Assembly: GCA_963675525.2 (NCBI GenBank)
Contig: CAXXSL010000016.1
Location: forward strand, 68,698-132,697
DNA: 64,000 nt
Reading direction: 5' to 3'
From: Anaerohalosphaeraceae bacterium
GTDB lineage: Bacteria > Planctomycetota > Phycisphaerae > Sedimentisphaerales > Anaerohalosphaeraceae
The stretch's first letter is position 1. Each line of letters begins with the position of its first letter. Below are positions 30,001 to 33,000 of the stretch, one piece after another. The position numbers are program-made.

Positions 30001-33000
30001 GTCACCCGTACCTTCATTGACAACATCGCTCAGTGCTTTTTGCACCATCCAGTCGGCCACTTCCTTCTTGAGGACATAGCCTGTTTTTATTGCGGGCCGG
30101 CGATCTTCGATGATCGTGCCCTGCGTATCCACAATCGCCCTGACAACGTGCGGCTTAACCACATATCCCCCATTGGCAAAAATACTGTAAGCTCGGCATA
30201 TTTGCAGCGGGGTGACCATCACTTCATGTCCATAGGAAATGCGTGTTTCGCTCCAGCCGCGTTCCCACTCGGATAACGGCCAAACCAACCCAGGCGCTTC
30301 CCCCGGTAGATCAATGCCGGTCTTACTTGAAAAGCCAAACAGCTTTAATCCGTCATATAATTTCTTCTGACCCATTTTCAAAGCGATCTTCGCCATCCCG
30401 ATATTACTTGAATGCATTAGTATCTCACGAACTGCCAGATGGCCATATTGATGGTTGCCGAATTCGCCGATTTTATAACGCGCATAATAACCGTTCTCGC
30501 AATCGAACTTTTCATCGTAGCCGATCGCGTCGGCATCCAGCGCAATTGCCGCAACGATAGGCTTGAAAATGCTGCCCGGTTCAAAGGGGTCCGTCAATGA
30601 CCGGTTTCTCATCAAATCCTGCGGCGTCGTCGCAAAATTGACCGGGTCATAATCCGGCAGCGACACCATCGCCAAAATCGCCCCCGTCCACGGGTCCATG
30701 ACGATACCCACGGCCGATTCGGCTTCATATTCCTGCATCTTTTGCTGCAGCGCTTCATGGACAAACCGCTGGATCACCACATCGATGGTCAAAACAAGAT
30801 TCTGGCCATCTTTGGCATCGGCGGACTCAACCGGCTGAATGCCGATCGGGCGCCGGAAATTGTCAACCACGAAAAGATCCTGCCCCCGCGTGCCGGAAAG
30901 GGTCTCCTCGAATTTCATCTCCAAACCGGACAGCCCTTTATTTTCGGCCCCCACAAAACCCAACAGATGTCCTGCCAGATAACCAGCCGGATAATAACGC
31001 TTCCAGTCCGGCGCAATACCAACCCCCGGAATATGGCTTTTTTCAATCTGTTTTTTTTCTTCCAGACTGATATCCCGCTTGATCCTGACGTATCCCGGAT
31101 TATTCGCTGAGTCGATCTGTTCACAAATTTTGTATCCCGGCTCGCCGAGAATGCCCTGAAGCGCAGAGGCGGACAACTTCAGCTGTTCGGGGTCATTCAT
31201 CAATTGGCGCGGTTCAGCAAACGCATTGTATGTCTTCACACTGGCCGCGAGAACTCTTCCCCGGACATCAAGGATCAGACCACGTCGGGGATTTTGCGGC
31301 ACAATGGCACTGCGTTGCCGCTGACTGCTTTGTGTATACTCCGCTTTAAGGGTGATTTGCAAATGGACCAGCCGCCAGACTAATAATCCAAAGCAAACAA
31401 CGGTTGCGGTCATGAAAACCGGAAGTAACCACACCTGTTGTCTTCTGGCGATCATTGAGCAGCTCCTGTCGGATTCGGCGAATTGGATGGCGGCAGGCCC
31501 GCCGGATTGACCAGACATTCAAAACGTAATTGTTTTTGCCAAAGCTGCTGCTTAAGTTCTTTTTGCTCGACCATCGCGCCCCGGGAGCGATTGAACATCC
31601 GGGCAGAGGAAGTGCGCAAATGAATCGTAAAAATCATAAAAGCTGTAACGGAAAATACGATGACGAGCATTCTCGAACGCGACATGGGCCATAGCGCCTT
31701 TTACCTGTTGGGAATTTTCAGATTCATTCCCACAATTAAGTCGTCGGACTCTTTGATGGTCGGATTCATTTTCTGAATTTCCGAATACTGATTTCCCTCT
31801 CCCAGCAACGCCTCGGCAATCCCCCACAGCGTGTCCCCCTCCTGAACCACATAGATCCGGGCGGAACTGCGGACACCACTCTGCTCGGCACGCTCAAAAA
31901 GATTAGAAAATTTCTCCAGAAAAGTAGTTTCCGCTTCTGACGTTTTTGCTGAAGTCTTTCCTGCAGGCTGCAGTTTATTGTTCAGCAATTGATCGTATGG
32001 CGGAATTGTCAGTTTGTCACCAACAAAAATCTTATCCGGCGAACTCAGGACCTTTTGGTTTGCTTCGTACAGTTTTTGGATGACAATGCGTCGATTGCCC
32101 TCTTCCTTACCGTAATATTTTCGGGCGATCGCGGGAAGATTATCACCCGACTGAACAACATGGATGGTCTGTTTCGATGCCCCGACCGCAGATGTCTGTA
32201 CTTGCCGTGAAATTGTCGGCACCCGAACAGCCGCAGACGCTATCTGTTCGGGAGAGATCAAGGCTGTCGAGTTCGATGAGGCCGAACCGTCATCCAGCAC
32301 AACCACTTCCCGGGGCAATTCGGTTTGACGAAGCGGAATATCCTGCTGACGAAGAGCCTGGACGGTTTCAAACAAACGATCATCAATCACAAGGTCGGAT
32401 GCTTTGGGAATAGTAATTTCCGTCTCAACGGGATTTTCGGCAGACGCTTCCTGCAGAAACTTCGGGATCGGTAACCCCTCGATTAAGAATGCGATGATAA
32501 AAATAAAAAACAGCCCCAGCAATAAACCTACCTTGGCGTCAGCGGTCATGTCAACAACTCCCTTTGTCCTCTACCTTAATCTGTTATACGTCTAGCGATT
32601 CGCAGTTTTGCACTCCGTGAACGAGGATTTTGTCGAATTTCATCCCGGTCTGCGATAATCGGTTTTTTTGTTAGAATTTCATAGAGCCCGTCGCTTTTAT
32701 ATTGACGGAAACTGTTTTTCACCAGTCTGTCTTCCAGGCTGTGAAAACTGATGATGGCGATCATTCCGCCGGGTTTCAGCAGAGTCGGCCCTGTTTGAAG
32801 CAGCCGTTCCAGGCAATCCAGCTCACGGTTCACAGCAATCCGCAGGGCCTGAAAAGTCCGCGTCGCCGGATGAATGCGTCCGGGGCGGGACGGCTGCTTC
32901 AGCGCCCGGCAGACCAACGACGCCAATTCCGTTGTCGTCGTGATCTTCTTTTGCGAACGCTGGTCAATGATGAACCGAGCAATCCTCCGTGACGCCCGGT

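Follow-up and report, generated by a model that had tools for sequence, protein, structure and literature searches.

We have analyzed the division-cell wall (dcw) cluster of an Anaerohalosphaeraceae bacterium, contained in a 64,000-nucleotide stretch of its genome that we call the window. The open reading frames of the window place six genes on the minus strand in the order mraZ, a 69-aa ORF, rsmH, a 282-aa ORF, a 77-aa ORF and ftsI, with successive intergenic gaps from mraZ to ftsI of 20, 26, 26, 15 and −4 nt; this is the arrangement described in an earlier survey of the genome, with which both the ORFs and the Pfam assignments agree. mraZ, encoding the repressor of the dcw cluster, lies at 33762..34238 (MraZ, PF02381, E = 4e-23) and rsmH (mraW) at 32576..33505 (Methyltransf_5, PF01795, E = 5e-96). 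The interval between them holds the 69-aa ORF (33532..33741), a conserved gene of unassigned function that has homologues in the same place at many loci and gave no match in Pfam or NCBIfam. Pfam, hydropathy, AlphaFold2 and Foldseek identify the product of the 282-aa ORF (31701..32549) as a bitopic double-LysM protein. It is followed by a divergent ftsL of 77 aa (31452..31685), and the last gene of the cluster is ftsI (29710..31455), a class B PBP with the domains PF00905 (Transpeptidase) and PF03717 (PBP_dimer). A mreB-mreC-mreD-pbp2 operon on the plus strand (25106..29744, by Pfam) runs convergently with the cluster, a layout also present at 11 of the 20 loci of the order (Sedimentisphaerales) that were fetched with wide flanks. 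This cluster does not include the mur genes, ftsW-murG or murC-ddl, which are found at other places in the source genome.

Upstream of mraZ, on the minus strand at 34274..34301, is a promoter-like site, TTGACT-16-TAGTAT, which overlaps a pair of GTGG(G/T) repeats with a spacing of 10 nt that we take to be MraZ-box-like. Judged in the window sequence alone the pair is not above chance. A spaced GTGG(G/T) pair is however found 5′ of mraZ at 22 of 44 related loci, compared with 1% of random 200-nt segments, and such repeats upstream of mraZ fit control of the cluster by MraZ. The four genes mraZ-rsmH-ftsL-ftsI, their order and the MraZ-box-like repeats are those of the canonical dcw head (PMC12673574; PMC12283558; PMC5147048). 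The window differs from this and from the eroded planctomycete forms by two insertions, the 69-aa ORF and the gene for the transmembrane LysM (TM-LysM) protein, neither of which is mentioned in the portions of these three accounts that were available.

The survey had described a 282-aa membrane-anchored protein with two LysM modules, and this is borne out. The sequence scores 79.6 bits against the Pfam LysM model (PF01476) over two stretches, well above the gathering cut-off of 20.9. LysM domain 1 comprises residues 128–185 (31995..32168, minus strand) and includes an invariant Asn164; domain 2 comprises residues 231–280 (31710..31859, minus strand) with an invariant Asn262, both being defined by Pfam, alignment and AlphaFold2. 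The AlphaFold2 model, calculated from a 42-sequence alignment with a pTM of 0.35, predicts both LysM folds at pLDDT 94–98 and the linkers at low confidence, and the Foldseek matches of the modelled folds are LysM structures. The survey's N-terminal helix is present, although not at residues 8–30; hydropathy places it at about residues 5–24 (32478..32537, minus strand) and AlphaFold2 at 3–24. The presumed cytoplasmic end has only about five residues. No catalytic domain was found by Pfam, NCBIfam, AlphaFold2 or Foldseek, and a sequence scan revealed neither a cysteine nor a lipobox. The sole S-x-x-K string, at residue 169, falls inside LysM 1 and outside the conserved columns. The closest clusters in the ESM Atlas are unnamed LysM proteins, mostly from Planctomycetota.

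The helix carries a family motif, M-T-x-[ED]-x-K-[IV]-G-L-L-x-G-L-x-F-I. In a comparison of 10 genomes of the source genus, residues 1–27 form the most conserved segment, with 88% identity against 64% for LysM 1, 58% for LysM 2 and 32–35% for the linkers, the comparison being between segments of the LysM protein itself rather than with control genes. dN is well below dS in every part of the protein. Since the transmembrane segment is conserved above the LysM domains, it is likely that the helix is a specific binding surface.

What is the divisome in which such a protein might act? In agreement with the survey, a Tubulin/FtsZ search of the source genome (99.5% complete) was negative, and there was likewise no match for the FtsA SHS2 domain or for SPOR (FtsN). 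The genome encodes two SEDS genes and FtsK. The survey had noted the 77-aa ORF at the FtsL position. The window's own copy gave no match to FtsL models, but its relatives match three of them: counting matches at E up to 0.5, FtsL_Actino (NCBIfam) was matched by 24 of 30 aligned relatives (best E 2e-10), FtsL_COG5462 by 15 and TIGR02209 by 12. A PDB sequence search with the family returned generic coiled coils only. With its transmembrane segment and coiled coil, its place just 5′ of ftsI and the family-level profile matches, the ORF is, on sequence criteria, FtsL.

A divergent FtsB-like gene lies outside the window, after enolase, with a profile probability of 96% over 78 columns against a comparison profile built from 27 planctomycete DivIC matches; it adjoins enolase in 9 of 11 loci. 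Failure of the Pfam DivIC model had raised the idea that the LysM protein replaces a lost FtsB, and this is disposed of by the separate FtsB. Nor does the LysM protein resemble FtsB, as its first 90 residues match the planctomycete FtsB profile with a probability of 3% and there is no FtsB/DivIC-type coiled coil right after its transmembrane helix. FtsQ gave no match in Pfam or NCBIfam; its position alone makes a 310-aa transmembrane gene downstream of ddl a candidate. The late divisome of the genome therefore looks nearly complete, without FtsN. This shows that the late divisome of the class is fuller than the literature account, containing FtsL and an FtsB-like gene, and the gap that is visible there is filled by a protein shaped like FtsN.

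We then asked how widely the gene is found after rsmH; the genomes counted in what follows are kin and not independent. A sample of 151 genomes of the order included 148 with rsmH, and for 142 the main rsmH place was listed. The LysM gene follows rsmH in 139 of these 142 assessable genomes: in 137 the LysM-protein match starts no more than 1.2 kb downstream, and two more proved adjacent once the locus was fetched. In two of the remaining three the contig ends at rsmH, and the third was left unchecked. The best-matching 30 loci of the order all read rsmH-LysM-ftsL-ftsI. At six of the 20 loci fetched wide ftsI is absent while the LysM gene and ftsL stay together, and ftsI was found elsewhere in the genome in all five of these six that were searched.

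The gene is also common outside the order. Among other genomes of the class it lies after rsmH at 35 of 40 loci, corresponding to 36 of 39 genomes when second rsmH copies are counted. In a second class, inferred to be Planctomycetia, it does so at 24 of 40 loci under a strict 2.8-kb rule and at 26 by inspection of ORFs. The survey's finding had been an adjacency kept in more than half of the order (228 of 409 genomes) and almost nowhere else, and hence a lineage-specific component. The first figure is too low and the restriction does not hold; of the 1142 cases that the survey itself counted, 914 fall outside the order. Where second-class loci retain ftsI the LysM gene follows rsmH in 7 of 7, and where ftsI has gone in 17 of 33. 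The protein there grows from about 280 aa to 450–750 aa, and nearly all of the increase is linker.

In the remaining classes the gene lies within 2.8 kb after rsmH at just 1 of 55 loci, in the order rsmH-ftsL-LysM-ftsI. A profile search gave matches 7–10 kb downstream of rsmH in several genomes of these classes, and all nine loci of this type that were fetched hold a TM-LysM gene with two LysM domains inside the cluster, eight directly after ftsW and one after murG. For the ftsW type, which were chosen because their coordinates fitted, murG was confirmed as the next gene at 5 of 8 loci. Fetching a further 17 matches added two more such dcw-internal genes. In the other classes, genes of this type are known directly after ftsW at eight loci, after murG at two and between ftsL and ftsI at one.

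Paralogues sharing the transmembrane motif occur outside the dcw cluster as well, often after secDF. Comparison of N-terminal motifs gave a profile probability of 96% between the two rsmH-type groups and 95% for the secDF type, while that for the ftsW type was 24% and 77%, control helices giving 3–20%. In a tree of 59 two-LysM-domain proteins (125 columns) the copies of the second class form a clade, and little else is recovered. A single orthologue moving between loci is unsupported, given this tree and the presence, in one genome of the order, of both the rsmH copy and a paralogue linked to secDF. These genes make up a phylum-wide TM-LysM paralogue family that is strongly and repeatedly associated with the dcw cluster.

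Is the insertion connected with the loss of FtsZ? Tubulin/FtsZ was undetected in 143 of 146 genomes of the phylum and in 135 of 141 of the class, where the matches were weak (21–41 bits). Since FtsZ is undetected almost phylum-wide while the LysM gene lies after rsmH in few classes, the insertion does not track FtsZ loss, and the idea that the gene was gained there as FtsZ disappeared was discarded. The same counts tell against the survey's suggestion that the protein explains how a septum is built without a Z ring. So do five second-class genomes (95–99% complete) that keep the gene after rsmH and have no match for SEDS or for a PBP transpeptidase. FtsWI cannot be the partner in those five genomes; FtsK was present in all four that were searched. 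They agree with the loss of wall genes reported for three orders of Planctomycetia (PMC12283558; PMC12673574). The Pfam LysM score is 34–67 bits for all 11 ftsI-linked copies, and 0–50 bits for copies without ftsI, with no match in 5 of 19, a contrast that is a trend among related genomes and not a test. For the 16 of 40 second-class loci without the gene after rsmH, 2 of 12 genomes searched had no LysM match anywhere.

Three known systems bear on the function of the protein. The first is NlpD of the chlamydiae, where the gene order is murD-nlpD-ftsW. NlpD of Waddlia chondrophila has two LysM domains, by which it grips sacculi, and is encoded in a wall/division cluster; about half of the constricting cells show it at the septum, and on long inhibition of wall synthesis it leaves that site while RodZ remains (PMC4083446). 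CPn0902 of Chlamydia pneumoniae has a transmembrane segment, two LysM domains and a reported DD-carboxypeptidase activity (PMC4083426), and both DD-carboxypeptidase and endopeptidase-like activities are reported for chlamydial NlpD (PMC4083446; PMC4083426). The planctomycete protein shares the N-terminal membrane segment, the two C-terminal LysM domains and the absence of LytM, and its gene too belongs to a wall/division cluster in an FtsZ-less PVC host. It differs in sitting after rsmH and before ftsL, and in showing no peptidase features. The likeness is one of architecture and cluster context, taken from the published descriptions rather than from a comparison of sequences. Chlamydial NlpD is late and dependent on prior wall synthesis, which argues for a follower and not a marker. 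The survey had proposed a divisome component that marks or recruits septal peptidoglycan synthesis; the division-linked, wall-binding half of this survives, and the marker does not sit well with the NlpD precedent.

The second is YneA, an SOS-induced protein with a single LysM domain, alongside which ChiZ and DivS are named as comparable proteins. In Bacillus subtilis its transmembrane helix is reported to act on TM7 of FtsW, taking it to the septum, and LysM binding is needed to block synthesis (PMC13396833). One transmembrane helix and an extracytoplasmic LysM are common to both, but the planctomycete family has two or three LysM domains, a long linker and a place in an MraZ-headed dcw cluster, where YneA belongs to the SOS regulon. 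The YneA model NF010723 is matched below its cut-off by 37 of 42 family members (43.7 against 60 bits for the window protein), within the LysM region only.

The third is FtsN, which has a short cytoplasmic end, one transmembrane helix, a long disordered linker and a C-terminal wall-binding module. The LysM protein is likewise bitopic, with a short N-terminal end, a long disordered linker and a terminal wall-binding module, and its host has FtsL, an FtsB-like gene, FtsW and FtsI while lacking any match to SPOR. It has LysM in place of SPOR and no FtsA to bind; the likeness is one of architecture.

Genetic data from related bacteria are also relevant. Planctopirus limnophila has ftsI at Plim_1789 and its two mraW copies at Plim_2101 and Plim_4021 (PMC12283558, Table 1). 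The genes flanking ftsI (Plim_1787, 1788, 1790 and 1791) and the mraW copies (Plim_2099, 2100, 2102, 2103, 4019, 4020, 4022 and 4023) have transposon insertion indices within 0.06–0.13, the essential neighbour Plim_2098 having an index of 0.004 (PMC10632474, supplementary file 5). If the LysM gene is at one of these candidate tags, as it is in the relatives studied here, it would be dispensable in P. limnophila. ftsI and ftsW are likewise reported as dispensable there (PMC6952346). In Verrucomicrobium spinosum VSP_RS19445 is essential (index 0.016, with polar effects possible), and the order of the tags places it between murD and ftsW. LysM genes are marked near verrucomicrobial murB/C in a figure legend (PMC4803751), and VSP_RS19445 is possibly a candidate NlpD-type LysM gene.

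For the LysM gene our favoured and most likely reading is a membrane protein that binds peptidoglycan and is tied to division. This is backed by the MraZ-box operon, by the linkage to ftsL where ftsI is absent, by the other dcw positions and by the NlpD architecture. A more specific role, to which we give an even chance, is that of a late, non-catalytic, peptidoglycan-binding accessory of the septal synthase FtsQLB-FtsWI, built like FtsN. The LysM pair would face the periplasm and bind peptidoglycan glycan, and the docking partner of the helix within the membrane would be one of the late divisome proteins, in the first place FtsW or FtsL/FtsB and in the second FtsK, with the disordered linker crossing the periplasm between them. 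The protein may thereby tie the synthase to new septal wall, and promote or pace it as FtsN does in E. coli septal synthesis (PMC10591338). We envisage an old planctomycete TM-LysM paralogue family of which one copy is repeatedly found in the dcw cluster; where lineages lost FtsW and FtsI that copy would have been lost, decayed or been reused. The evidence for a late accessory comprises the adjacency to rsmH, the ftsL linkage, the similar genes at ftsW, murG and ftsL-ftsI in other classes, the constant presence after rsmH at second-class loci that retain ftsI, the LysM scores, the helix conservation, the lack of SPOR and the NlpD and YneA precedents; on the other side stand the five genomes without SEDS or transpeptidase, the insertion-tolerant Planctopirus candidate tags, the non-dcw paralogues and the poorly resolved tree.

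Retention of the gene in genomes without FtsW and FtsI would also be expected of a general tether or spacer between inner membrane and wall, with the linker spanning the periplasm, LysM gripping glycan anywhere and the dcw location providing growth-coupled expression only. The several paralogues outside dcw, the non-essential Planctopirus candidate tags and a second-class protein lengthened almost entirely in its linker are in keeping with this. However, similar genes at several distinct dcw positions and the fall in LysM scores where ftsI has gone point the other way, and the 88% identity of the helix is not expected of a plain anchor; we consider such a tether unlikely.

A broader role has a rather slender chance, in which TM-LysM proteins would be at the core of FtsZ-free division in fission and budding planctomycetes. 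The helix would act on FtsK or, through its G-x-x-x-G string, on itself, and LysM would sense the wall where the cell divides or buds. Planctomycetes would then carry their own branch of an NlpD-type dcw gene that runs through the PVC group, to which the essential gene of the V. spinosum murD/ftsW interval may also belong. This would explain how the LysM gene outlasts ftsL, ftsI and ftsW in the cluster.

The shared TM-LysM plan, the subthreshold NF010723 matches and the mechanism reported for YneA (PMC13396833) could alternatively indicate a negative regulator, whose helix sits on FtsW and whose LysM stalls the new glycan strand, a standing brake where no Z ring times constriction. The gene belongs to a housekeeping MraZ-headed cluster and YneA is induced by SOS, the match is restricted to the LysM region, and two LysM domains on a long linker contrast with the one of YneA, making a brake improbable.

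We regard as more improbable again an early landmark in place of the Z ring, marking the site first and recruiting FtsK or FtsQLB in both fission and budding lineages. It would accord with a gene kept across two classes, including FtsK-containing genomes without FtsW and FtsI, and with a transmembrane motif common to both. Yet the gene is missing after rsmH at 54 of 55 loci of other classes in a nearly FtsZ-less phylum and at 16 of 40 in the second class, some of those genomes lacking any LysM match; a scaffold would need more than about five cytoplasmic residues, chlamydial NlpD comes to the septum late, and the Planctopirus candidate tags are non-essential. The LysM protein is probably not a replacement for FtsZ. 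Finally, a peptidoglycan peptidase is suggested by the domain plan shared with NlpD and its reported activities, but is barely credible for a protein with no detectable catalytic domain and a lone S-x-x-K within LysM 1 that is not a conserved column.

As far as the texts were accessible, full-text literature searches found no description of a TM-LysM dcw gene in planctomycetes, and in the papers on planctomycete division that were examined the term LysM does not appear in the body text. Septal factors of this sort, encoded in dcw and combining a transmembrane segment with two LysM domains, are already known from the chlamydiae, which are likewise PVC bacteria without FtsZ. New here are its range over two classes, the ftsW and murG positions elsewhere, its survival without FtsW and FtsI, the FtsB-like gene and the connection to the NlpD precedent.

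The way in which planctomycetes manage division without FtsZ has yet to be explained, and FtsK is reported as the only established essential player (PMC12673574; PMC10632474). The LysM gene adds a concrete, conserved, periplasm-facing candidate. A protein that is only a late helper like chlamydial NlpD would serve as a useful marker of the septum; one that acts in the absence of FtsW and FtsI would point to division machinery of a new kind.

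In the interval between mraZ and rsmH, the head of the division-cell wall (dcw) cluster carries a conserved 69-aa ORF (33532-33741, minus strand) that has no family match; it is found across the class, and several further classes have it too. The GTGG repeats 5′ of mraZ are missing at three of the loci fetched from planctomycete genomes (L032, L033 and L049, each from a different genome, all within a single family of the order), where mraZ itself is present. Outside the dcw cluster, the genome of the window (G000) has a second rsmH-like gene (C13:710106-711011), and such an extra copy is common across the phylum.

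Over 25106-31455, the dcw head is linked with mreBCD by ftsI and pbp2, which lie tail to tail in a convergent layout retained at 11 of 20 loci of the order. Upstream on the mreBCD-pbp2 side are lnt, a gene for a HEAT-repeat protein and another (24051-24908) whose 285-aa product is a coiled-coil protein.

Paralogues of the double-LysM membrane protein (TM-LysM) of the cluster have a second conserved site, directly 3′ of secDF, in many planctomycete classes (loci L269, L273, L276, L278, L279, L318-L321, L326 and L327). Three further LysM genes are found in G000 (C11:608753-609922, C16:839253-839654 and C13:214861-215424), encoding one TM-LysM protein with a C-terminus that resembles an L,D-transpeptidase by its motif, and two short TM/coiled-coil-LysM proteins. 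At a further locus (L217:2878-5951), mraZ and rsmH are followed by an ORF whose product has an MraZ-like domain at its C-terminus, and then by the gene for a 508-aa protein that carries the N-terminal membrane-helix motif of the TM-LysM family and gave no LysM match by Pfam.

Weak Tubulin-family matches (37-41 bits), in frames of 445-540 aa, occur in five planctomycete genomes (G034:C32:116539, G039:C3:58244, G044:C8:83494, G060:C4:113516 and G160:C10:23717), covering all four genomes of one genus in the family of the window, plus a fifth genome. The match in G278 is stronger, at 97 bits.

The ftsQ position in G000, 3′ of murC-murB-ddl, is occupied by a 310-aa membrane protein (C3:11038-11982, plus strand; locus L311) that had no match in Pfam or NCBIfam. 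Directly 3′ of enolase lies a divergent FtsB-like gene (C18:19116-19646, plus strand; loci L312 and L331-L341), the product of which has a second hydrophobic segment, at its C-terminus. Pfam DivIC is above cut-off in 29 of 146 genomes of the phylum. One published account states that ftsB was lost from all planctomycetes (PMC12673574); the FtsB-like gene and the DivIC matches are in conflict with that loss.
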